The notes under the pieces were generated by a model. The model saw only the letters and a list, made by a program, of their open reading frames with translations, searched no databases and was not told the origin of the DNA. DNA of 7,902 nt from a virus (lineage: Duplodnaviria; Heunggongvirae; Uroviricota; Caudoviricetes): IMG/VR virus record IMGVR_UViG_2541047498_000013. The stretch is one strand, 5' to 3'. Position 1 is the stretch's first letter; every line of letters begins with the position of its first letter. Made by a program: the position numbers and the translations under genes. Of the stretch, positions 1-7,902 are shown one piece after another.

Positions 1-121
1 CGCCAGATTCGGTTTTAAACGTTTTGCTTTTGGTATACGTCATCGCGGTGAATGTACCGTCCTGGTTGGGAAACACGCCGTACACCAGAGATTCGTTGTT
101 GCCAAGATCGATAGTATCCAT
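1..121 (-). CDS. Small phage protein, 5' end only (first 40 codons in window; gene continues beyond the left edge); possibly YdfA/DUF1391-like
   Basis: Minus-strand ATG at 121..119 preceded by GAGG about 5 nt upstream; open frame to the window edge reading MDTIDLGNNESLVYGVFPNQDGTFTAMTYTKSKTFKTESG. Too short for the supplied ORF track. Family name is from memory of small Qin/Rac prophage proteins and is uncertain. Confidence 0.55.
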   Translation of the reverse strand, partial: MDTIDLGNNESLVYGVFPNQDGTFTAMTYTKSKTFKTESG

Positions 122-313
122 GTTGACCTCATTTCCCCTTAACGCCGGGTAGCGGAACAAAAACCTGCTGCATAGTTATTAAAGTTGAACCCTGCCGTCA
201 TGTTCATACGCCTCGGGCTGGCTACTTACCCCCTGACCACTGCTTGGTAACTCGAAGTATTGCCCGGCGTTCTGTGGGGCGGGGTGGGTGGTTGGTGTAT
301 GTAATCTACAATA

Positions 314-341
314 AAAAACTGTTTTTGTGTCAACAGTTTTT
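314..341. promoter_or_regulatory. Palindromic operator-like site (left operator candidate): AAAAACTGTT-N8-AACAGTTTTT
   Basis: Perfect 10-bp inverted repeat read directly. The 16-mer ACAATAAAAAACTGTT at 308..323 is repeated exactly at 1343..1358. A TTGACA hexamer (minus strand, 333..328) lies inside the palindrome. Confidence 0.6.
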
Positions 342-354
342 AATTGTTGTTTTG

Positions 355-381
355 GGCAAAAAAATCCCTCGAAAGAGGGAG
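355..381 (-). terminator. Candidate Rho-independent terminator downstream of the ParE-like gene (minus strand)
   Basis: On the minus strand: stem TCCCTC / GAGGGA (365..370 pairs with 375..380), 4-nt loop, then a run of 7-8 T (plus-strand A run 357..364), starting 18 nt after the toxin stop codon. The stem is short (6 bp), so strength is uncertain. Confidence 0.5.
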
Positions 382-398
382 TATGAAAATTGTTCAAC

Positions 399-686
399 TC
401 AGATAGAGAAGGGAAATTGTCGCCGAGAATGTGTCACGCTTACAATCTCAATGCTTGAAGCAGCTACTCTGTACAGGATTATGTAGTTAGGGTGGGTCAC
501 GATCTCTCTCAATCCAGAAACCCGTTCGCTTGGTGGATATAAGTACGGATGCTCAGATAGAGGTAATACCGATGTTTCAATGCGTATTTTTAGTCTACGT
601 GCTGCCGGTGGGTTCTCCTTGGCGATGTAAGTTATGATCTGGCGCAAATCATCGCGAGCAGACGGTAGCCATAAAATGGGTAACAT
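399..686 (-). CDS. parE: Type II toxin, RelE/ParE superfamily (ParE2-like, gyrase-poisoning family)
   Basis: 95-aa ORF beginning MLPILWLPSARDDL and containing LPLSEHPYLYPPSERVSGLREIVTHPNYIILYRV, which I recognise as ParE-family motifs. Its ATG overlaps the upstream antitoxin stop by 1 nt (TAATG), the typical toxin-antitoxin coupling. Confidence 0.8.
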   Translation of the reverse strand: MLPILWLPSARDDLRQIITYIAKENPPAARRLKIRIETSVLPLSEHPYLYPPSERVSGLREIVTHPNYIILYRVAASSIEIVSVTHSRRQFPFSI

Positions 687-877
687 TACTCGCTCTTGTT
701 AGTTACAGCAATTTGAGCAATAAGATTTTCCATTTCAGCCATTACCTCGTCATGTGGAATTGCGGGGCGAGTGTCTGCAAGGCTTGACGTTACTTTAGTG
801 CGCAACCATTCGTTGTAACTGTTTTCTTGTTCGGTAGTTTCGAATTCTGAAACTATCGGAGAAAGGGCTGTACCCAT
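686..877 (-). CDS. paaA2: Type II antitoxin, PaaA2-like (small antitoxin partner of ParE2-type toxins)
   Basis: 63-aa ORF with SPIVSEFETTEQENSYNEWLRTKVTSSLADTRPAIPHDEV, recalled as closely resembling the 63-aa PaaA2 antitoxin. AGAGGAG Shine-Dalgarno 7 nt upstream of the ATG; sits immediately upstream of and overlapping the toxin. Confidence 0.75.
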   Translation of the reverse strand: MGTALSPIVSEFETTEQENSYNEWLRTKVTSSLADTRPAIPHDEVMAEMENLIAQIAVTNKSE

Positions 878-904
878 GGCATAACTCCTCTTCTTGTACT
901 GTGG

Positions 905-1306
905 TCACGCCCGGCGGCTTTTTTGTGCCGCCAGCCACCTAGCAATGGTTTCTTCCATTGATTTTTTCTTGTCTTTGATTTCTTGAAGCATTTTTTCTTG
1001 GTCTTCCTCAGGAAACGCACTAAAAGCTTGGAGCAGTTCGCGTTGGCGAGGACCAATTTTCATCGTGTCAGGGGTGAAAATTTGCTCACACTCTTCAGGA
1101 GGCAATAAAAACCAATGCAATGGATGCCCTGAAACCTCAACCAGTTTATCCAAACTTGAGGCTTTAGGTGTAGCCTTACCGCTGACCCATTGTTGAACAG
1201 TTTGTTGTGTCACACCAATTCTACGGGCAAGCTCAGCCTGGCTCCATCCAGTTTCCTGAAGAAGCTTGCTGATTCTGTACATAGATACTTCTAGGGCGCT
1301 CATCAT
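905..1306 (-). CDS. paaR2: XRE-family HTH transcriptional regulator, CI-like prophage repressor / PaaR2-like regulator of the toxin-antitoxin operon; no LexA-type peptidase domain seen
   Basis: 133-aa ORF with HTH motif WSQAELARRIGVTQQTVQQWVSGK; no GDSM-type S24 protease motif in the C-terminal half. First gene of a leftward three-gene cluster, divergent from the Cro-like gene. Start uncertain: ATG at 1306 has no Shine-Dalgarno (possibly leaderless); in-frame ATG at 1282 would give MYRISKLL. Confidence 0.75.
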   Translation of the reverse strand: MMSALEVSMYRISKLLQETGWSQAELARRIGVTQQTVQQWVSGKATPKASSLDKLVEVSGHPLHWFLLPPEECEQIFTPDTMKIGPRQRELLQAFSAFPEEDQEKMLQEIKDKKKSMEETIARWLAAQKSRRA

Positions 1307-1347
1307 TATTCAATTTTACAGGTAAATACTGTTAAAAGCATCACAAT

Positions 1348-1376
1348 AAAAAACTGTTGATTGCATACAGTTTTTT
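1348..1376. promoter_or_regulatory. Palindromic operator-like site (right operator candidate) in the divergent regulator / Cro-like intergenic region: AAAAAACTGT-N9-ACAGTTTTTT
   Basis: Perfect 10-bp inverted repeat sharing an exact 16-mer with the 308..341 site. Lies in the 108-bp gap between divergent regulator genes, where a lambdoid right operator would sit; a TTGATT -35-like hexamer is at 1358..1363. Confidence 0.6.
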
Positions 1377-1414
1377 ATTGTAGGCTTTGCTTATAGTTTT
1401 TAGAGGAGGGCAAA

Positions 1415-1687
1415 ATGCTAGATAGCACTCGCGAAAAAATTAGGCAGAAATACACTCAGGCTGAAATAGGTCGTTATATGGGGGTCGCTCAACAGACTGT
1501 TTGGCAATGGTTTAGCTTTGGCGTTCCCCCAAAGCAGGTAATTCCGTTATGCCAACTAATGAAGTGGGAAGTTACCCCGCATGAAATCCGCCCAGATATT
1601 TATCCTAACCCAACCGACGGTTTACCTGTTGGATGTAAGGTTAACACATCAAATGCGCCGGAGTTGATTCATGAAAATCAAGCATGA
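1415..1687 (+). CDS. ydaS: Cro-like HTH regulator (YdaS-family)
   Basis: 90-aa ORF with AGAGGAGGG Shine-Dalgarno 4-5 nt upstream; HTH segment QAEIGRYMGVAQQTVWQWF; divergent from the CI-like gene and overlapping the YdaT-like gene by 17 nt. Symbol by analogy to the Rac prophage locus, not by verified identity. Confidence 0.7.
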   Translation: MLDSTREKIRQKYTQAEIGRYMGVAQQTVWQWFSFGVPPKQVIPLCQLMKWEVTPHEIRPDIYPNPTDGLPVGCKVNTSNAPELIHENQA

Positions 1688-2096
1688 ACACATCCGCATG
1701 GCGATGAATGCCTGGGCGCATCCGGACGGCGAAAAAGTACCGGCTGCGAAAATTACCAAAGCGTATTTCGAGCTGGGAATGACGTTCCCGGAACTGTATG
1801 ACGACAGCCATCCGGAAGCCATGGCTCGCAATACTCAGAAAATTTTCCGCTGGGTGGAGAAAGACACTCCTGATGCGGTTAAAAAAATTCAGGCGTTGTT
1901 ACCAGCGATCGAAAAAGCGATGCCGCCTCCGCTGGTGGCCCGAATGCGCAGCCACAGTTCCGCTTATTTTCGGGAGTTGGTAGAGACGAAGGAACGGCTG
2001 GTGAAAGATATTGATGATTTCGTTGCATCAGCGATCGTTCTGTTCGATCAGATGAATCGTGGTGGCCCGGCAGGAAACACTCTGGCTGTGCATTAA
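1671..2096 (+). CDS. ydaT: YdaT-family protein (CII-like regulator; historically annotated as a putative toxin)
   Basis: 141-aa ORF beginning MKIKHEHIRMAMNAWAHPDGEKVPAAKITKAYFELGMTFPELYDDSHPEA, which I recognise as near-identical in pattern to Rac prophage YdaT. Position directly downstream of the Cro-like gene matches. Confidence 0.8.
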   Translation: MKIKHEHIRMAMNAWAHPDGEKVPAAKITKAYFELGMTFPELYDDSHPEAMARNTQKIFRWVEKDTPDAVKKIQALLPAIEKAMPPPLVARMRSHSSAYFRELVETKERLVKDIDDFVASAIVLFDQMNRGGPAGNTLAVH

Positions 2097-2109
2097 TTGG
2101 GTAATAAAT

Positions 2110-2619
2110 ATGAGTAATGACAAAAAATTGACACTGAGCGTTTACGAAAACAGTCCGCACATCTGGCGTGGCGGTTTATCTGATGTGGAGCTGGCAGAGT
2201 GGTTGATACATAAAGCTAATGCGCTGCTCTGGCGTTTGTCAGCCAGAGAACAGCGCAAGGAAACCAGAATAAAGCTGGCTGATGCAGAAGCGTGTGCCGG
2301 GCTTATTGAGGATTATACAAATCTTGGTATTTCTTCAGCAGAGAGTGATCCCATTCAGCCTCTGAGCAGGGAGTCAATCCAGCACGCTGGTTGTATGGCA
2401 CATCTTGTAACTGCTCGTCAACATGAGGTGGGTATTGGATCACTTCCGGCGGGATATTCGCTGATTCCAGAGCTGGTTGAAGCAAGAAAATCAGTTCAGA
2501 AAAAGAGAGATGACGCACTTCAATTATTGAGAGAGCACTATGGCGCGATACCAGAATGCGAACAGCGTCGATACCCTGAAGGTTATGAATGGATGCAGTC
2601 TCTTTTTGAAGTTCGCTAA
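2110..2619 (+). CDS. Hypothetical phage protein (169 aa from ATG 2110; the ORF is open from 2059)
   Basis: Long ORF in the same orientation as the flanking early genes. Start chosen at MSNDKKLTL (ATG 2110), 14 nt after the ydaT stop; no strong Shine-Dalgarno. No family recognised. Confidence 0.55.
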   Translation: MSNDKKLTLSVYENSPHIWRGGLSDVELAEWLIHKANALLWRLSAREQRKETRIKLADAEACAGLIEDYTNLGISSAESDPIQPLSRESIQHAGCMAHLVTARQHEVGIGSLPAGYSLIPELVEARKSVQKKRDDALQLLREHYGAIPECEQRRYPEGYEWMQSLFEVR

Positions 2620-2836
2620 TCAATATGTCGAGACGAAGGTATGTTTCGGCGCGCAGCCAGGCTCTGTAATCCGGGAGCATTTCGGGGCTGTTACACCAGC
2701 GGTTTGTTGCTGCAACATTTAATACATGAGCCTGATAAAGGCTTTTCAAAAAATACATGTCGAACCTCCTCTGGTTCTGTCGATTGGGAACCACAGATTA
2801 TATCCGGAGGAAGGTTCGGCACCAGATGAGGTAGCC

Positions 2837-3928
2837 ATGCGTGATTACGCAAAAGTTTCTCCGCGATTCTGGCTGGGAGAAACGGGGAGAGAACTTAGAA
2901 AGGCGGGTGCAGAAGCGCAAGTTGTTGCTTTTTACCTGATGACATCCCCTCACGCAAATATGCTGGGTTTGTATTACCTGCCAGTTTTATACCTTGCTCA
3001 TGAAACCGGGCTTGGTCTGGAAGGGGCTTCAAAGGGGCTTAAAAGGGCTGTTGAAGCTGGTTTTTGTAGCTATGACCATGATGCAGAGATGGTCTGGGTC
3101 CATGAAATGGCAGCCTGGCAGGTTGGGGAAACGTTGAAGCCTGGCGATAACCGTTGTGCAGGTGTCAGGAATGAGTATGCATCATTACCTGAAAACGCTT
3201 TTCTGTCAGTGTTTTACGACAGATATAAAACGGATTTCCATCTGGATGTGAGGCGGAATAATAGCCGAAATTCGGTAAGGGGCTTCGAAGGGGCTTTTAA
3301 GGGGCTTCGAAGCCAAGAACAGGAACAGGAGCAGGAGAAAGAACAGGAACAGGACAAAAACACTATGGTTCATGGCAAAAAAAACACCACGAACCAGGCA
3401 GGGGATGTTCAGACCGTCAATCCTGGTCAGCCAGCAGGCACGACACCGGAAGCCGATTCGGGCGCTGTGCAGCAGGTGATGACCGCAGGGTCGGAGCAAT
3501 CACACCAACTGCAGCAGCCTGAAGCCGATTCCGCCATTCAGCGGGAAGCCGATCGGGTAGTCCCGGAAAGCACCGGGCAGTCTGTGGGACGAGTGGATTA
3601 TCCGGATGTGTTCGAACAGGTCTGGCGGGAATACCCGTTGCGTGCTGGGGCAAACCCGAAGAAATCCGCTTTCAGTGCCTGGAAGGCCAGATTGCGCGAG
3701 GGGGTGCCACCAGAGACCATGCTGGATGGTGTGAGGCGTTACGCGAGATACCTGGCGGCGACCGGGAAAGCGGGAACGGAATTTGTTCAGCGAGCGACGA
3801 CGTTTTTTGGGCCGGACCGGAATTTTGAAAACCCCTGGTTGCTCCCGGTAAGCGGCACGAACAACCAGCGTTGTGTGAATCATATTTCTGAACCGGATAC
3901 CGAAATTCCGCCGGGATTCAGGGGGTGA
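2837..3928 (+). CDS. Phage replication initiation protein (lambda O-like / Rac YdaU-like role), with internal repeats and a QEQEQE low-complexity linker
   Basis: Long ORF immediately upstream of the DnaC-like loader gene. Start taken at ATG 2837 (MRDYAKVSPRFWLGETGREL) with GAGG 5 nt upstream; the ORF is open from ATG 2726 but that codon has no Shine-Dalgarno. Internal AAGGGGCTT repeats and A-rich tract are consistent with an origin embedded in an initiator gene. Confidence 0.65.
   Translation: MRDYAKVSPRFWLGETGRELRKAGAEAQVVAFYLMTSPHANMLGLYYLPVLYLAHETGLGLEGASKGLKRAVEAGFCSYDHDAEMVWVHEMAAWQVGETLKPGDNRCAGVRNEYASLPENAFLSVFYDRYKTDFHLDVRRNNSRNSVRGFEGAFKGLRSQEQEQEQEKEQEQDKNTMVHGKKNTTNQAGDVQTVNPGQPAGTTPEADSGAVQQVMTAGSEQSHQLQQPEADSAIQREADRVVPESTGQSVGRVDYPDVFEQVWREYPLRAGANPKKSAFSAWKARLREGVPPETMLDGVRRYARYLAATGKAGTEFVQRATTFFGPDRNFENPWLLPVSGTNNQRCVNHISEPDTEIPPGFRG
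3021..3049. repeat. Iteron-like direct repeats, cluster 1: AAGGGGCTT x2 plus AAGGGCT at 11-bp phasing
   Basis: Copies start at 3021, 3032 and 3043 (read directly); they encode the GLEGASKGLKRA segment of the initiator. Confidence 0.5.
3277..3308. repeat. Iteron-like direct repeats, cluster 2: AAGGGGCTT x3 at exact 11-bp phasing
   Basis: Copies at 3277..3286, 3288..3296 and 3299..3308, immediately followed by a GAACAG-type hexanucleotide repeat and an A-rich tract. Confidence 0.55.
3316..3355. repeat. Imperfect hexanucleotide tandem repeat (GAACAG/GAGCAG units) encoding QEQEQEQEKEQEQ
   Basis: AGAACAGGAACAGGAGCAGGAGAAAGAACAGGAACAGGAC read directly; followed by an A-rich stretch to about 3390. 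Confidence 0.6.
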
Positions 3929-3934
3929 TGTGGC

Positions 3935-4681
3935 ATGAAAAACATTGCGGCAGCCGGGGTTCTTGAACGTATTCGCAGACTTGCACCACAGGCGTCGGTT
4001 CCACCGTACCGGACGGTGGAGGAGTGGCGGGAATGGCAACTTGCTGAAGGACGAAAACGCAGCGAGGAGATTAACCGCCAGAATCACCAGTTGCGGGTGG
4101 AAAAAATCCTGAATCGTTCGGGCATCCAGCCTCTGCACAGCAAATGCTCGTTTGCGAATTATCAGGTGCAGAACGACGGGCAAAAATACGCGCTGAGCCA
4201 GGCCAAATCCATAGCTGACGAACTGATGACCGGGTGCACGAATTTTGTGTTCAGCGGTAAAACCGGCACCGGGAAAAATCACCTTGCAGCGGCGATGGGT
4301 AACCGGCTGATGGCGAAGGGGCGCAGCGTGATTATCGTCACCGTGTCTGATGTCATGAGCGTGTTGCATGACAGCTACGACAACGGCAAATCCGGGGAAA
4401 AATTTTTACAGGAGCTTTGCAGTGTTGATTTGCTGGTCCTGGATGAAATAGGCGTTCAGCGGGAGACGAAAAACGAGCAGGTGGTATTACACCAGATAAT
4501 TGATCGCCGGACAGCATCACTGTGCAGTGTCGGGATGTTAACAAACCTGAATCATGCCGCAATGAGTACACTTCTTGGTGAGAGGATTATGGACCGCATG
4601 ACCATGAACGGTGGTCGATGGGTGACGTTTAACTGGGATAGCTGGCGTCCAAATGTCAGCAATATGAGGGTTGTGAAGTAA
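3935..4681 (+). CDS. DnaC-like replicative helicase loader (AAA+ ATPase; Rac YdaV-like)
   Basis: 248-aa ORF with Walker A GKTGTGKNHLAAA and Walker B LLVLDEIG, and overall DnaC-like layout. GGGGGTGATG Shine-Dalgarno-like sequence upstream; starts 7 nt after the initiator stop. Confidence 0.85.
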   Translation: MKNIAAAGVLERIRRLAPQASVPPYRTVEEWREWQLAEGRKRSEEINRQNHQLRVEKILNRSGIQPLHSKCSFANYQVQNDGQKYALSQAKSIADELMTGCTNFVFSGKTGTGKNHLAAAMGNRLMAKGRSVIIVTVSDVMSVLHDSYDNGKSGEKFLQELCSVDLLVLDEIGVQRETKNEQVVLHQIIDRRTASLCSVGMLTNLNHAAMSTLLGERIMDRMTMNGGRWVTFNWDSWRPNVSNMRVVK

Positions 4682-4702
4682 TTTTGTCCGGAGGAAATTT
4701 TA

Positions 4703-5419
4703 ATGGAAACCGTATCTGACGCACTGAAAGCACTGAAAAGAGCCTCTTCACATGTGGTGGCAGCTCGCCTTGGAATTAGTCGTGAAGAGGCTGTCAACGA
4801 ACTGTGGAAACTGAAACGCCGTGGAGAAGCGGATAACAAGGGGGCGATATGGTGGCTGACTCAGGCTGGTGAAAGTGAACCGGTGTCACCGGTACCGAAA
4901 GTGACGGCGCAAATGCTGACAGAGGCGATTGAACAACATGGCCCACAAACGGCGGATGAACTGGCATTGATGTTCGGAATTACCTCCCGCCGGGCGAATT
5001 CATCGCTGGCAATGGCAATCAGCAAAGGGTGTCTGATTCGCGTGAATCAGGATGGTAAATTTCGTTACTGCATACCGGGCGTTGATTTACCGGCAGAGCC
5101 GAAAGCAGCATCCGTAGCTGAAACGGAGGGTAAAGCCCTTCCTCAGCCAGCTGGTGTTGCGTTACCAGTCCAGGAAACGGCTGCACAGGAAGAAATTAAA
5201 ACAGAAGCGGTGGAGGACATTGTGAAGTTGCAGCAATCGTTCACTGAAGCGAAAGCAGATGACCTGATTCTACCATCGCTGCATGTGGCTAACCGCGAGC
5301 TGCGCCGGGCGAAAAGTAATGTTCAGAAGTGGGAGCGAGTCTGTGCTGCGCTACGGGAACTGAACAAACACAGGGATATTCTCCGGGATATTACCGCCAC
5401 CAGAGAGCAGCAGCGGTGA
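4703..5419 (+). CDS. Hypothetical phage protein with two predicted winged-helix-like segments and a C-terminal coiled-coil-like region (possibly DUF1627-like)
   Basis: 238-aa ORF with GGAGG Shine-Dalgarno 7-8 nt upstream. Segments [25 protein letters not shown] and [27 protein letters not shown] look like HTH / winged-helix motifs. The DUF name is from memory only. Confidence 0.6.
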
Positions 5420-5733
5420 GTGGCTGGAAGAAGTGGCGCTGGGCTGAAATCCTGATACTCCGGCAGTGTGCGGGAACGATGAGAGTCGAAAGCATCGGTT
5501 ATCTGATTGGCCGTAGTGAGTCAGCCGTCAGGACGAAAGCGCGGGAACTGGGTATCAGCATGATGTTACGGGGTGATTATCACCAGTCAGCCAAATGTTC
5601 ACAGCGTGATATTGAGCTGGCGTGGCAACTGCATCAGCGTGGTGTACCCCGACGGGAAATTGCCGAAAAGTTTGGGATGAAGTTGGGCGCAGTGAATAAC
5701 TACGTTTATTTCGACAGGAGGGTTCAGGAGTGA
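5416..5733 (+). CDS. Hypothetical small DNA-binding protein (two HTH-like segments)
   Basis: ORF open from 5329. Start placed at GTG 5416, which overlaps the upstream stop (GTGA) with a GAGAG Shine-Dalgarno-like sequence 8 nt upstream; ATG 5479 is an alternative. Contains [21 protein letters not shown] and [22 protein letters not shown]. Confidence 0.5.
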
Positions 5734-6032
5734 GGGTGAGGGTTTATATCGCCGGTCCGATGACGGGATATGAAAATTTTAACCGCGAGGCATTTCACAA
5801 AACGGAAGAGGTGCTGAAACGGGAAGGGCATACCGTTTTAAACCCGGCAGTACTTCCGGACGGGCTGACTCAGCCACACTACATGGATATTTGCATGGCA
5901 ATGCTCCGTTGCGTGGATGCGGTTTACATGCTGAAAGGCTGGCAGCAGTCGGCAGGTGCAGGGGCTGAGCTGGCACTGGAGGAGAAACCGGGCCATGCGG
6001 TGATTTTTCAGGAGGTGGGCAGTGAATATTGA
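5730..6032 (+). CDS. DUF4406-like protein (nucleoside 2-deoxyribosyltransferase-like fold)
   Basis: 100-aa ORF beginning RVYIAGPMTGYENFN and continuing HTVLNPA...YMLKGWQQSAGAGAELALEE, which I recognise as the DUF4406 / NDT-like signature. GTG start overlaps the upstream stop (GTGA); GTG 5736 with AGGAG 5 nt upstream is an alternative start. Confidence 0.7.
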   Translation: MRVRVYIAGPMTGYENFNREAFHKTEEVLKREGHTVLNPAVLPDGLTQPHYMDICMAMLRCVDAVYMLKGWQQSAGAGAELALEEKPGHAVIFQEVGSEY

Positions 6033-6339
6033 CCCGGCGATAACGATTGATATGGCCCTGAACGCCGGCCTGGCACTTCTTGGTTATTTCTACATTATGT
6101 TCTGCAGCGGACGATGGCTGTCACTGTTGTTCATGAAAAAATGGAATAAACGCCGTAAGCAGGAGCAACGCCAGAAGGCAATGGATGCATTTTTCGAAGC
6201 CTTCGGAATTGACGGCATGGAACCAGGGGATCCAGCTCGCGCAATCAGCAGAGGGGGTGTAGTAATCCTTGTATATCGGAGTGAAGAGAAAAATGACGAT
6301 CACAAAACAACGTGTAGAAGAAATCATATCCCGCATTGA
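6022..6339 (+). CDS. Small predicted membrane protein (one hydrophobic helix followed by a basic KKWNKRRKQEQRQK stretch), function unknown
   Basis: GTG start with AGGAGGTG Shine-Dalgarno 5 nt upstream, overlapping the end of the DUF4406-like gene by 11 nt. Hydrophobic segment MALNAGLALLGYFYIMFCSGRWLSLLFM. A 71-aa antisense ORF (6121..6336) is considered less likely. Confidence 0.5.
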   Translation: MNIDPAITIDMALNAGLALLGYFYIMFCSGRWLSLLFMKKWNKRRKQEQRQKAMDAFFEAFGIDGMEPGDPARAISRGGVVILVYRSEEKNDDHKTTCRRNHIPH

Positions 6340-6610
6340 AATGTATGGACATGGTGCAGGGTATATCGCAGACGAGGTTAATGATCTGGCTATACTGGCG
6401 CTGAATTTATCAAATATCGCGAACCTGAAGCGATACGAGCTTGATATGGGAGGTTGCGACTCGTGCGGTCAGGATTGTGGCGCTGATATGACTGAAGATC
6501 CTGATGGTGATTATGTCCTGTTTGATGACGTGGTTAAGTTGTTTGAATTTGATACAACCACTCAAAAGTTAGAAATCCCGGCAAAGGAGGCAGCCAGTGG
6601 GCAAGATTGA
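6293..6610 (+). CDS. Hypothetical acidic phage protein with a Cys cluster (CDSCGQDCGAD)
   Basis: ORF open from TTG 6269. ATG 6293 (MTITKQRVEEI) chosen; start uncertain because no strong Shine-Dalgarno. Overlaps neighbours on both sides in a different frame. Confidence 0.5.
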   Translation: MTITKQRVEEIISRIEMYGHGAGYIADEVNDLAILALNLSNIANLKRYELDMGGCDSCGQDCGADMTEDPDGDYVLFDDVVKLFEFDTTTQKLEIPAKEAASGQD

Positions 6611-7034
6611 CTATCAGGCACTGCGTGAGGCAGCACAAAACTATCAATCGACGCTGGCGTGGTATCAGGCTACCCCGGACAGCCCAAATGCTGAACGGGA
6701 TTGTGATGCGGCTCTTGCTGCGTTTAAGCGTCACATCCGTCATCGGGAAGCGGATATTATCGCTGATTTGCTGGATGGACTGGAAGAAGCAAAATCACAA
6801 CTCAACGAGCAGCGTGAGTATTACGAAGGCGTTATCTCTGATGGGAGCAAGCGTATTGCTGAACTGGAAGCGCGGGAAGTTCAATTACCGACTCGCTACG
6901 ACCTTCGATATGGACACCCGATAAATGCAGATGAGCGACATGTCATGATACCTAAAGAAAATGGCAGTTGGCTTTACCTGATTGACCTAGAACACGCATT
7001 ACGCGTCGCTGGCATTCGCATCAAAGGAGAGTGA
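6597..7034 (+). CDS. Hypothetical phage protein (145 aa) with a predicted central coiled-coil-like region
   Basis: GTG start with AAGGAGG Shine-Dalgarno 6 nt upstream; overlaps the upstream gene by 14 nt; stop overlaps the next gene's Shine-Dalgarno. Confidence 0.6.
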   Translation: MGKIDYQALREAAQNYQSTLAWYQATPDSPNAERDCDAALAAFKRHIRHREADIIADLLDGLEEAKSQLNEQREYYEGVISDGSKRIAELEAREVQLPTRYDLRYGHPINADERHVMIPKENGSWLYLIDLEHALRVAGIRIKGE

Positions 7035-7035
7035 G

Positions 7036-7227
7036 ATGAACGGACAAATATCAATTGTTCGACCAGGAGCATGTGACGATCGCGAAATACGAATGATTAT
7101 TCGTCTGGCGATGGGGAAAACAATAACTGCTCTCATTACTCCAGAAAATCTCGCATTAGCATTAACAGGAAAGTCAGACATGCCAGTAGAGCTAAAGCTG
7201 CGAAATGTTGAGATTAAGGTGAAATAG
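7036..7227 (+). CDS. Hypothetical small phage protein (63 aa)
   Basis: ATG with AAGGAG Shine-Dalgarno 6 nt upstream, 1 nt after the upstream stop. Confidence 0.6.
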   Translation: MNGQISIVRPGACDDREIRMIIRLAMGKTITALITPENLALALTGKSDMPVELKLRNVEIKVK

Positions 7228-7229
7228 CT

Positions 7230-7787
7230 ATGACCACTATTACCAAAGATCGACTGCTGACAATCCAGCATTGGCGCGAAACATACGGACCGGGTAGCAA
7301 CGTTGTGCTTCCAGCAGAAGAAGCGGAAGAGCTGGCACGGATTGCGCTGGCATCACTGGCAGCAGTATCGGATGAACGAGCAGCCTATGAATTATTTATG
7401 GAGAAGCGTTTCGGAGAATCTGTAGATCGCCGCAGAGCAAAAAATGGCGATAGAGATTACATGGTATGGGATATGGCGCTTGGCTGGATTATCTGGTGTC
7501 ACCGCGCCGCCATGCTTCAGGCTGGAAACTTTCGGGAAAATAAGGGTTCGTCAACCAATAATTTTCGGGAAATCTCGGAAACGTCAACCAACTATCCGGC
7601 AATCCCTGATGAGGTGTTGTCCGCAATCCTGAAGGTCGCCAGGCTTCGTGCAGATTTCGATGCTTCTGAAGTGGACAGGCGAGGTATCGGTAGTTGTCTG
7701 GATGAGGCCGAGCAAGAACTTATCGTTACCATTAACGAATACGCCAGTCAGATCGCAGTAGAAGCGACACAGGGGGAGAACCAATGA
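7230..7787 (+). CDS. Hypothetical phage protein (185 aa)
   Basis: ATG 2 nt after the upstream stop with AAGGTG 7-8 nt upstream; long ORF co-oriented with the cassette. No family recognised. Confidence 0.6.
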   Translation: MTTITKDRLLTIQHWRETYGPGSNVVLPAEEAEELARIALASLAAVSDERAAYELFMEKRFGESVDRRRAKNGDRDYMVWDMALGWIIWCHRAAMLQAGNFRENKGSSTNNFREISETSTNYPAIPDEVLSAILKVARLRADFDASEVDRRGIGSCLDEAEQELIVTINEYASQIAVEATQGENQ

Positions 7788-7861
7788 GCCGGCCAGATGC
7801 ATTTGCAGGCGTTGCTATAGCTATTGCTTTTCTAGTATATGTTATTTGTCGGTGGGGGTAA
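7784..7861 (+). CDS. Unannotated 25-aa hydrophobic peptide (MSRPDAFAGVAIAIAFLVYVICRWG), predicted single-pass membrane peptide
   Basis: ATG overlaps the upstream stop (ATGA) and is preceded by GGGGAG 6 nt upstream. Below the length cut-off of the supplied ORF track. Hydrophobic core AGVAIAIAFLVYVI. Confidence 0.45.
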   Translation: MSRPDAFAGVAIAIAFLVYVICRWG

Positions 7862-7896
7862 AAACGTTCGCCGGGATTCACACCAAGGGAGGGAAT

Positions 7897-7902
7897 ATGT
7901 CG
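7897..7902 (+). CDS. Start of a further rightward gene (only 2 codons in window)
   Basis: ATG at 7897 preceded by AAGGGAGGG 3-4 nt upstream; truncated by the window edge. Confidence 0.35.

Follow-up and report, generated by a model that had tools for sequence, protein, structure and literature searches.

The stretch of DNA considered here, which we call the window, comprises the 7,902 nucleotides (nt) of the IMG/VR virus record IMGVR_UViG_2541047498_000013, and it represents the early-right region of a lambdoid/Rac-type Escherichia coli prophage. Our attention was centred on two overlapping genes of this region, which encode a protein of the DUF4406 family and a protein of the DUF4752 family (Table 1). 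These genes are not a functional unit, and they lie side by side through prophage gene shuffling. The best explanation of the data, to which we give somewhat better than even confidence, is that both are independent accessory genes juxtaposed by modular recombination, the first of them encoding a minimal enzyme that resembles the nucleoside 2'-deoxyribosyltransferases (NDTs) and acts on substrates of the deoxynucleoside 5'-monophosphate (dNMP) type. A preliminary description of the window had proposed that a nucleotide-handling enzyme was coupled there to a membrane partner, the pair having an exclusion or anti-defence role. The coupling is not supported, since the adjacency is not conserved and mosaic breakpoints fall at the gene boundary; the role of the pair is not supported either, and no match to PADLOC was found.

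Both open reading frames (ORFs) are genuine genes, with match scores far beyond chance. The DUF4406 protein matched Pfam PF14359 over its full length and above the gathering score (115.1 bits, cutoff 22, E 2e-33, profile positions 2-90 of 91), sharing the motifs of the family and differing from it by A84E and L87P, and the DUF4752 protein matched PF15944 (132.1 bits, cutoff 27, E 7.5e-39, profile positions 1-84 of 84). In PHROGs they fall into phrog_355, annotated as 'nucleoside 2-deoxyribosyltransferase' (4e-43), and phrog_667, of unknown function (4e-41), respectively. The RefSeq protein identical to the first is named 'DUF4406 domain-containing protein' and the DUF4752 name is likewise in use; in addition, both genes have been catalogued in prophage Sp6 of E. 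coli O157:H7, as ECs_1513 and ECs_1514. The two ORFs and their 11-nt overlap were located where the preliminary description had placed them, and the downstream gene can fairly be called strongly initiated, as it had been, given the AGGAGG situated 6 nt 5' of its GTG. The YIAGPMTG N-terminus, which had been held typical of the family, is so according to the residue frequencies of a 250-sequence family alignment, from which all the conservation figures given below were also taken (Y6 0.91, I7 0.95, A8 0.85, G9 0.99, P10 0.93, M11 0.93, G13 0.96). Likewise, Pfam, PHROGs and Foldseek all agreed with the proposed assignment to DUF4406 and to an NDT-like fold.

Of the 5426 complete E. coli genomes in which the linkage of the two genes was evaluated, 1315 had the DUF4406 gene (1277 at a coverage of at least 80%) and 859 the DUF4752 gene. 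An intact junction between both was observed in 437 genomes, 278 of which carry the near-identical O157:H7 copy, and about two thirds of the E. coli DUF4406 genes had another downstream neighbour. In other species, DUF4752 was detected within 4 kb in 2 of 80 DUF4406 loci and was adjacent in none (0 of 79 species); the downstream neighbours there were diverse, some of them resembling, by eye, Ead/Ea22, VRR-NUC or cytosine-methyltransferase genes, and overlaps of 4 or 8 nt were common. In Rac-SA53, the closest sequenced phage, it is an Ead gene that follows the DUF4406 gene. Seen from the other side, DUF4406 was adjacent in 15 and absent in 63 of 79 IMG/VR loci with close DUF4752 relatives. The phage ranges also differ: 521 phage records contain DUF4406, the majority from phages of Actinobacteria, Vibrio and Pseudomonas, and 142 contain DUF4752, all of them enterobacterial (lambdoid and P22-like). 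Furthermore, phages of Arthrobacter, Vibrio, Gordonia, Mycobacterium and Pseudomonas, where DUF4406 is abundant, contributed none of the DUF4752 matches. An adjacency conserved beyond shared descent, which is what would define a two-gene module, was not found.

Where the junction is broken, homology ends at about position 6018-6028 on the DUF4406 side and begins at about 6010-6020 on the DUF4752 side. Breakpoints located exactly at the gene boundary point to lambdoid module exchange. When DUF4752 follows a TraR/DksA gene, the homology also starts at about 6010-6020, and the Shine-Dalgarno sequence travels with the DUF4752 module. The DUF4406 C-termini diverge after ...IFQE because the last codons belong to the ribosome-binding region of DUF4752. 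The slot that DUF4752 occupies varies as well: in HK106 the gene belongs to the early-left operon, in phage L it comes immediately behind ninA, and Stx phages have it beside genes of the TraR/DksA-like and Ead/Ea22 types. A 'fusion' of both proteins, P0008 (169 residues, from Logan assemblies), was considered and discarded as a double-frameshift artefact, most likely a sequencing or assembly error, with one frameshift at the gene junction and the other in an A-run after codon ~37 of the DUF4752 gene.

The AlphaFold2 (AF2) model of the DUF4406 protein, built from 34 homologues, had a predicted local distance difference test (pLDDT) value of 88.2 and a predicted template-modelling score (pTM) of 0.82. 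It presents an alpha/beta unit of four strands and three helices (E4-8, H19-31, E35-37, H48-59, E64-67, H75-85, E90-93), that is, a flavodoxin-like alpha/beta fold of the NDT type. The top Foldseek matches in the PDB were NDTs (2a0k, 6evs), DNPH1/Rcl of human and rat (9da6, 8qhq), MilB and BcmB, with a TM-score of ~0.7 when normalised by the query and of only ~0.5 when normalised by the target; MilB and BcmB are cytidine monophosphate (CMP) N-glycosidases. The model also resembles DUF1937 (PDB 1t1j, hypothetical protein APC5043), a separate Pfam family whose function is likewise unknown. By sequence, neither the protein itself nor the 34-sequence profile recovered a relative from the PDB, so no DUF4406 structure has been solved. 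The window protein did not match PF05014 (Nuc_deoxyrib_tr) at E <= 0.1; the same profile gave E 0.036 with the Rac-SA53 homologue and 28.5 bits, for a cutoff of 28.8, with the actinophage DUF4406 member Reedo gp27. This bridging score suggests true homology to the classical NDT family, beyond a likeness of fold. Judging by the model, the DUF4406 protein is a minimal member, of ~95 residues, of the NDT superfamily.

The conservation pattern agrees with this placement. Phe22, Ser74 and Glu80 are conserved at 1.00, Gly9, Pro39, Tyr51 and Gly76 at 0.99, and Ala77 at 0.98. The protein thus carries the [DS]-x-G-x-x-x-E nucleophile motif of the NDT superfamily (Ser74 to Glu80) together with the N-terminal Tyr/Phe (Tyr6). 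The alignment made with hhalign to human DNPH1 paired Tyr6 with Tyr24, Cys55 with Asp80, Ser74 with Ser98 and Glu80 with Glu104, and left Pro39 without an aligned equivalent. The one to DmtZ, which is gp53 of Gordonia phage Ghobes, paired Tyr6 with Tyr6, Pro39 with Pro57, Cys55 with Asn77, Ser74 with Thr97 and Glu80 with Glu103. These two global alignments are mutually consistent though weak (E 0.006-0.03), and they serve for residue mapping only, the mapping resting on motif and fold. The DNPH1 query sequence was checked against PDB entries, and Ghobes gp53 (L170, 42692-43177) was identified as DmtZ through the published residue numbers; its GenBank label remains 'deoxyuridine triphosphatase'. 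Asp53 was considered as the general acid and dropped, since it is conserved in just 0.69 of the sequences and two independent alignments favour position 55.

The roles of the aligned residues have been established by experiment for both DNPH1 and DmtZ. The catalytic triad of DNPH1 consists of Tyr24, Asp80 and Glu104; the last of these carries the covalent glycosyl-enzyme intermediate, and the 5'-phosphate is bound by Ser98 (PMC10603095). The equivalent of DNPH1 Tyr24 in MilB is Phe17, which accommodates ribose, and the change F17Y shifts MilB to deoxyribose substrates (PMC10603095). In DmtZ, mutation of Tyr6 or Glu103 kills both the hydrolase and the transferase activity, the third residue is Asn and not Asp, and Pro57 is a transferase-type proline, proposed to exclude water (PMC12884076). 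The Asn of DmtZ indicates that the third catalytic position can vary. In addition, the lack of Asp or Asn at the 5' position has been taken as a mark of monophosphate substrates (PMC12884076).

DmtZ, a phage deoxyadenosine monophosphate (dAMP) N-glycosidase and deoxyribose-5-phosphate transferase (PMC12884076), is the nearest characterised functional analogue of the DUF4406 protein, which lies outside that group. Both proteins are phage-encoded and have in common the NDT-like fold, an N-terminal Y-x-A-x-P, a Pro that immediately follows beta2, a residue both small and uncharged six places ahead of the nucleophile Glu, and a third residue other than Asp (Asn77 in DmtZ, Cys55 in the DUF4406 protein). 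In contrast, a length of 161 residues and a C-terminal lid (Trp124) are found in DmtZ only; it is not a Pfam DUF4406 member, giving a weak PF05014 match alone, and it works in phages whose DNA contains Z (2-aminoadenine), beside PurZ0 and DutZ. Pfam scans of the ORFs of the 7.9-kb window gave no PurA/PurZ or Dut domains, and lambdoid coliphages are not known to use Z. DNPH1/Rcl, a 2'-deoxynucleoside 5'-phosphate N-hydrolase, has Asp80 where the DUF4406 protein has Cys55, and it possesses a helical element with Glu55 and His56 and a Ser128'-donating C-terminal extension, both absent from the DUF4406 protein; the sequence similarity between them is not significant by itself.

By analogy with these enzymes, our best guess is that the DUF4406 gene encodes a minimal N-glycosidase or transferase of (deoxy)nucleoside 5'-phosphates, produced in the early part of lytic growth. 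The operon would be a delayed-early one (post-replication, nin-like) of a lambdoid/Rac-type E. coli prophage, and its DUF4406 product would bind a (deoxy)nucleoside 5'-monophosphate. In the proposed complex, the phosphate would rest on Ser74 and the Gly-rich loops, with Met11 stacked against the base and Tyr6 responsible for the choice of deoxyribose. Cleavage of the N-glycosidic bond would be a double displacement in which Glu80, oriented by Tyr6, would form a covalent (deoxy)ribosyl-5-phosphate ester, and the base would then be freed to water or swapped for another base. This chemistry would be DNPH1-like and, closer still, like that of DmtZ, and it could serve to adjust or sanitise the nucleotide pool during phage replication. 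In Mycobacterium phage Ariel, a Pfam-confirmed DUF4406 gene lies less than 2 kb from genes annotated as MazG-like pyrophosphatase and DUF5664, and DUF5664 proteins are dATP/dGTP pyrophosphohydrolases (PMC12884076). These neighbours give some contextual support for a role in the metabolism of deoxynucleoside triphosphates (dNTPs) and dNMPs. With regard to expression, the promoter-like and terminator-like sites of the window were not more frequent than in shuffled sequence; together with the position of the overlapping operon 3' of the replication genes, this suggests that the DUF4406 gene is most likely expressed during early lytic growth rather than in the lysogen.

The annotation of related proteins in the databases is uneven. 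Ariel gp162 (L082, 1474-1854) and, from the Arthrobacter phages Daob and Reedo, Daob gp55 (L083, 1468-1845) and Reedo gp27 (L084, 1504-1872) are single-domain DUF4406 proteins, and they bear the GenBank labels 'MazG-like pyrophosphatase' or 'deoxycytidylate deaminase'. Fusions with a MazG-like pyrophosphatase or a deoxycytidylate deaminase were considered for this reason and rejected, since these actinophage homologues are single-domain proteins of 122-126 residues with inconsistent names. Among 20 longer DUF4406 representatives (179-358 residues) no second Pfam domain was detected. As a further hint of a nucleotide-metabolism context, BFVD contains DUF4406-like structures inside entries named 'dATP/dGTP diphosphohydrolase N-terminal domain-containing protein', among them the putative DUF5664-DUF4406 fusions A0A6J5LQ71 and A0A6J5S4N9. 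The NDT-like effector of retron Ec86 was also considered, as a toxin analogue, and discarded, as there is neither PADLOC similarity nor a retron context.

Several observations weigh against the explanation of independent genes with a dNMP-type enzyme as the first of them. The junction persists in some diverged alleles (78-81% identity), given which there may be a weak linkage between DUF4406 and DUF4752. As to the enzyme, the protein ends after beta4, without the C-terminal third of the canonical fold, and it lacks the C-terminal extension that in NDTs and DNPH1 completes the site of the neighbour, having no equivalent of S128'. The third catalytic Asp, the general acid on helix alpha2, is not present, and Cys55 occupies its place; by eye, the actinophage members Ariel gp162 and Reedo gp27 have Asp at the match to residue 55, so that the Cys55 of the enterobacterial proteins would be a derived variant. 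By hhalign, DNPH1 and DmtZ were matched with weak statistics (E 0.006-0.2; direct comparison with DmtZ, E 0.03-0.16). The conserved Pro39 is of the transferase type, and 'hydrolase' may for that reason be the wrong half of the chemistry. The Sp6-type allele may be less active than typical members, given A84E and L87P. Finally, a published assay of any DUF4406 protein was not found in the literature, nor were functional data on DUF4406, DUF4752 or ECs1513/1514.

The two substitutions lead to the alternative that survives best, although we consider it unlikely: the Sp6-type copy of O157:H7 would be a decaying, impaired allele riding in a prophage remnant. At position 84, 95% of the sequences have Ala and 1.2% have Glu; the shares at position 87 are 76% for Leu and 0.8% for Pro, and close homologues read ALAEKLG around the two sites; moreover, several annotated pseudogenes are present in the same prophage of strain TR01. 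Against this, nothing disrupts the ORF, the allele is fixed in identical form in ~278 complete genomes, every signature residue is kept, and AF2 still gives the fold, though AF2 is insensitive to point mutations.

That the DUF4406 protein is a classical NDT, working on unphosphorylated deoxynucleosides in salvage, seems improbable to us. This is the name used by PHROGs and by many GenBank records, NDTs lead the Foldseek list, and Pro39 is kept as in the transferases. NDTs generally have an Asp six positions before the nucleophile, which holds the 5'-OH, and the DUF4406 family has there an invariant Ser. The hydrolases that accept a 5'-phosphate, and also DmtZ, are distinguished by a small residue without charge at this site (PMC12884076; S98 in DNPH1). 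The absence of the Asp acid, of the C-terminal NDT elements and extension, and of a PF05014 match for the window protein at E <= 0.1 indicates that the NDT label should not be used.

Two further readings of DUF4406 function appear doubtful, and we give them still less credit. According to one of them, DUF4406 alone would be an anti-defence factor with a TIR/SLOG-like fold, a sponge for, or a cleaver of, a nucleotide immune signal or a molecule related to nicotinamide adenine dinucleotide (NAD). The NDT-type Tyr/Ser/Glu signature is conserved better than any TIR-like feature, the TIR likeness is generic to the flavodoxin-like superfamily, the literature searches gave no experimental hint, and there is no similarity to PADLOC effectors: none of the PADLOC-DB v2 hidden Markov models matched either protein, or their two neighbours, at E <= 0.1. 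According to the other, the enterobacterial DUF4406 proteins would form a distinct, lid-less, Cys-variant class of NDT-like proteins with a non-canonical (damaged, modified or defence-derived) nucleotide as substrate, such as a deaminated nucleotide, a chain terminator or an immune signal based on ribosyl.

Least probable is a translationally coupled module of DUF4406 enzyme and DUF4752 membrane protein serving nucleotide-based superinfection exclusion or anti-defence, which the overlap of 11 nt, the strong Shine-Dalgarno sequence that the upstream gene contains, the 437 E. coli junctions with their diverged alleles and the accessory-region location would favour, but which the distribution data largely refute, given the other neighbours of most E. 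coli DUF4406 genes, the lack of adjacency in other species, the 63 viral DUF4752 loci without DUF4406, the differing phage ranges, the boundary-exact breakpoints, the similar overlaps (4-47 nt) throughout the operon, the absence of a PADLOC match and the artefactual nature of the sole fusion.

The DUF4752 product is probably a single-pass inner-membrane protein with N-out/C-in topology and a small cytoplasmic domain, judging by its sequence. The single hydrophobic helix that had been attributed to it is supported, as a prediction, by the pattern of charge and hydrophobicity. On the Kyte-Doolittle scale the segment peaks at 1.54, a borderline value given the customary threshold of 1.6; its N-side flank has a net charge of -2 and the 20 residues that follow it one of +7, a pattern kept in divergent homologues. 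The 'basic tail' reported for this protein is partly correct: the basic cluster exists and is conserved, but it is juxtamembrane (KKWNKRRKQEQRQK) and not C-terminal. Homologues down to 23% identity have an uncharged segment of 16-26 residues, an acidic N-flank, a basic stretch and a C-terminal beta-hairpin. The PF15944 relatives ST64T orf90, ST104 ORF7 and HK106 gp31 share the N-terminal hydrophobic helix, the basic juxtamembrane stretch and the C-terminal hairpin, with the exception that in HK106 gp31 an Asp interrupts the N-terminal hydrophobic stretch. The AF2 model, made from a shallow alignment and of low confidence (pLDDT 67.8), places a helix at residues 5-61 and a hairpin at 72-85. Within the early-left operon of HK106 (L165, 2447-3654), the DUF4752 gene lies two genes 5' of one annotated as queuine tRNA-ribosyltransferase, which may be DpdA-like; the latter encodes a nucleobase-exchange enzyme of an unrelated family, and its proximity is probably coincidental.

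The window allele of DUF4752 differs from these relatives by its last 13 residues (DDHKTTCRRNHIPH), an allele-specific read-through that overlaps the next gene. This tail is missing from most DUF4752 members, of 91-96 residues, and is predicted to be disordered (pLDDT <50 for residues 90-103). Since phage sequences match the downstream module from about position 6286 onwards, the tail appears to be a side effect of a recombination junction in the end of the gene.

As for the prophage setting, positions 4681-7605 of the window are 99.9% identical to prophage Sp6 of E. coli O157:H7 Sakai, and the immunity and replication region is unlike that of Sakai Sp6. None of the 5426 complete E. coli genomes matches at least 80% of the window at one place (best coverage 67%), which indicates that the source prophage is a different mosaic. 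The ParE and PaaA2-type genes are situated immediately 3' of the helix-turn-helix (HTH) repressor-like gene, in the same orientation; the trio resembles the paaR2-paaA2-parE2 module of O157:H7 prophages, placed at the immunity region. The 400-residue protein has a low-complexity linker, QEQEQEQEKEQEQ, in its middle part; neither its ORF nor that at 2059-2619 had any Pfam match. In the run of small genes, the start/stop overlaps are of 4, 4, 11, 47 and 14 nt, and the protein encoded at 5416-5733 gave HTH-type matches, all of them sub-threshold. NCBIfam and Rfam scans gave zero matches.

Table 1. Features of the window (positions 1-7902) with their coordinates and strands
Feature	Position	Strand	Remarks
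ParE toxin	399-686	minus	Pfam E 2.9e-17
PaaA2-type antitoxin	686-877	minus	Pfam E 5.6e-19
HTH repressor(-like) gene	905-1306	minus	
YdaS-like and YdaT-like genes		plus	before the 400-residue protein
400-residue protein	2726-3928	plus	slot of the replication protein in related prophages TR01 and Sakai Sp6
DnaC/IstB-like ATPase		plus	after the 400-residue protein
Run of small co-directional overlapping genes	4703-7787	plus	order: DUF1627, 5416-5733, DUF4406, DUF4752, phrog_3126, Ead/Ea22-like, others
DUF4406 gene	5730-6032	plus	GTG start, 100 residues; identical to ECs_1513 / WP_001310212.1
Tyr6 codon	5745-5747	plus	candidate partner of the Glu nucleophile; Tyr 0.91, Phe 0.07
Pro39 codon	5844-5846	plus	just past strand beta2; Pro 0.99; aligned with DmtZ Pro57
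Cys55 codon	5892-5894	plus	site of the canonical third catalytic residue; Cys 0.82, Asp 0.08
Ser74-Ala-Gly-Ala-Gly-Ala-Glu80 (S-x-G-x-x-x-E)	5949-5969	plus	candidate 5'-phosphate Ser and nucleophile Glu
Rare substitutions A84E and L87P	5979-5990	plus	helix alpha3, four and seven residues past the candidate nucleophile
Shine-Dalgarno AGGAGG of the DUF4752 gene	6010-6015	plus	within the 3' end of the DUF4406 gene
DUF4752 gene	6022-6339	plus	GTG start, 105 residues; identical to ECs_1514 / WP_001017965.1
11-nt overlap of the two genes, also mosaic junction	6022-6032	plus	breakpoints at 6010-6028
Predicted transmembrane segment of DUF4752, residues 11-30 (MALNAGLALLGYFYIMFCSG)	6052-6111	plus	20 uncharged residues
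47-nt overlap of the DUF4752 3' end with the next gene (6293-6610, phrog_3126)	6293-6339	plus	RefSeq gene model

Both families, and also these exact sequences, are already known, the latter from RefSeq, and the pair does not represent a novel type of system. The coupling that had been proposed does not survive a comparison across genomes, and the significance of the finding as it stands is slight. The value that is left lies in DUF4406, which is a large family, with 17,613 cluster representatives at E <= 1e-3, that retains an enzyme-like signature. If the doubtful reading of a non-canonical substrate were true, a prophage gene present in about one quarter of the complete E. coli genomes would be a single-gene counter-defence or pool-sanitising factor. 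More generally, assigning a biochemistry to DUF4406 would give function to thousands of phage genes.

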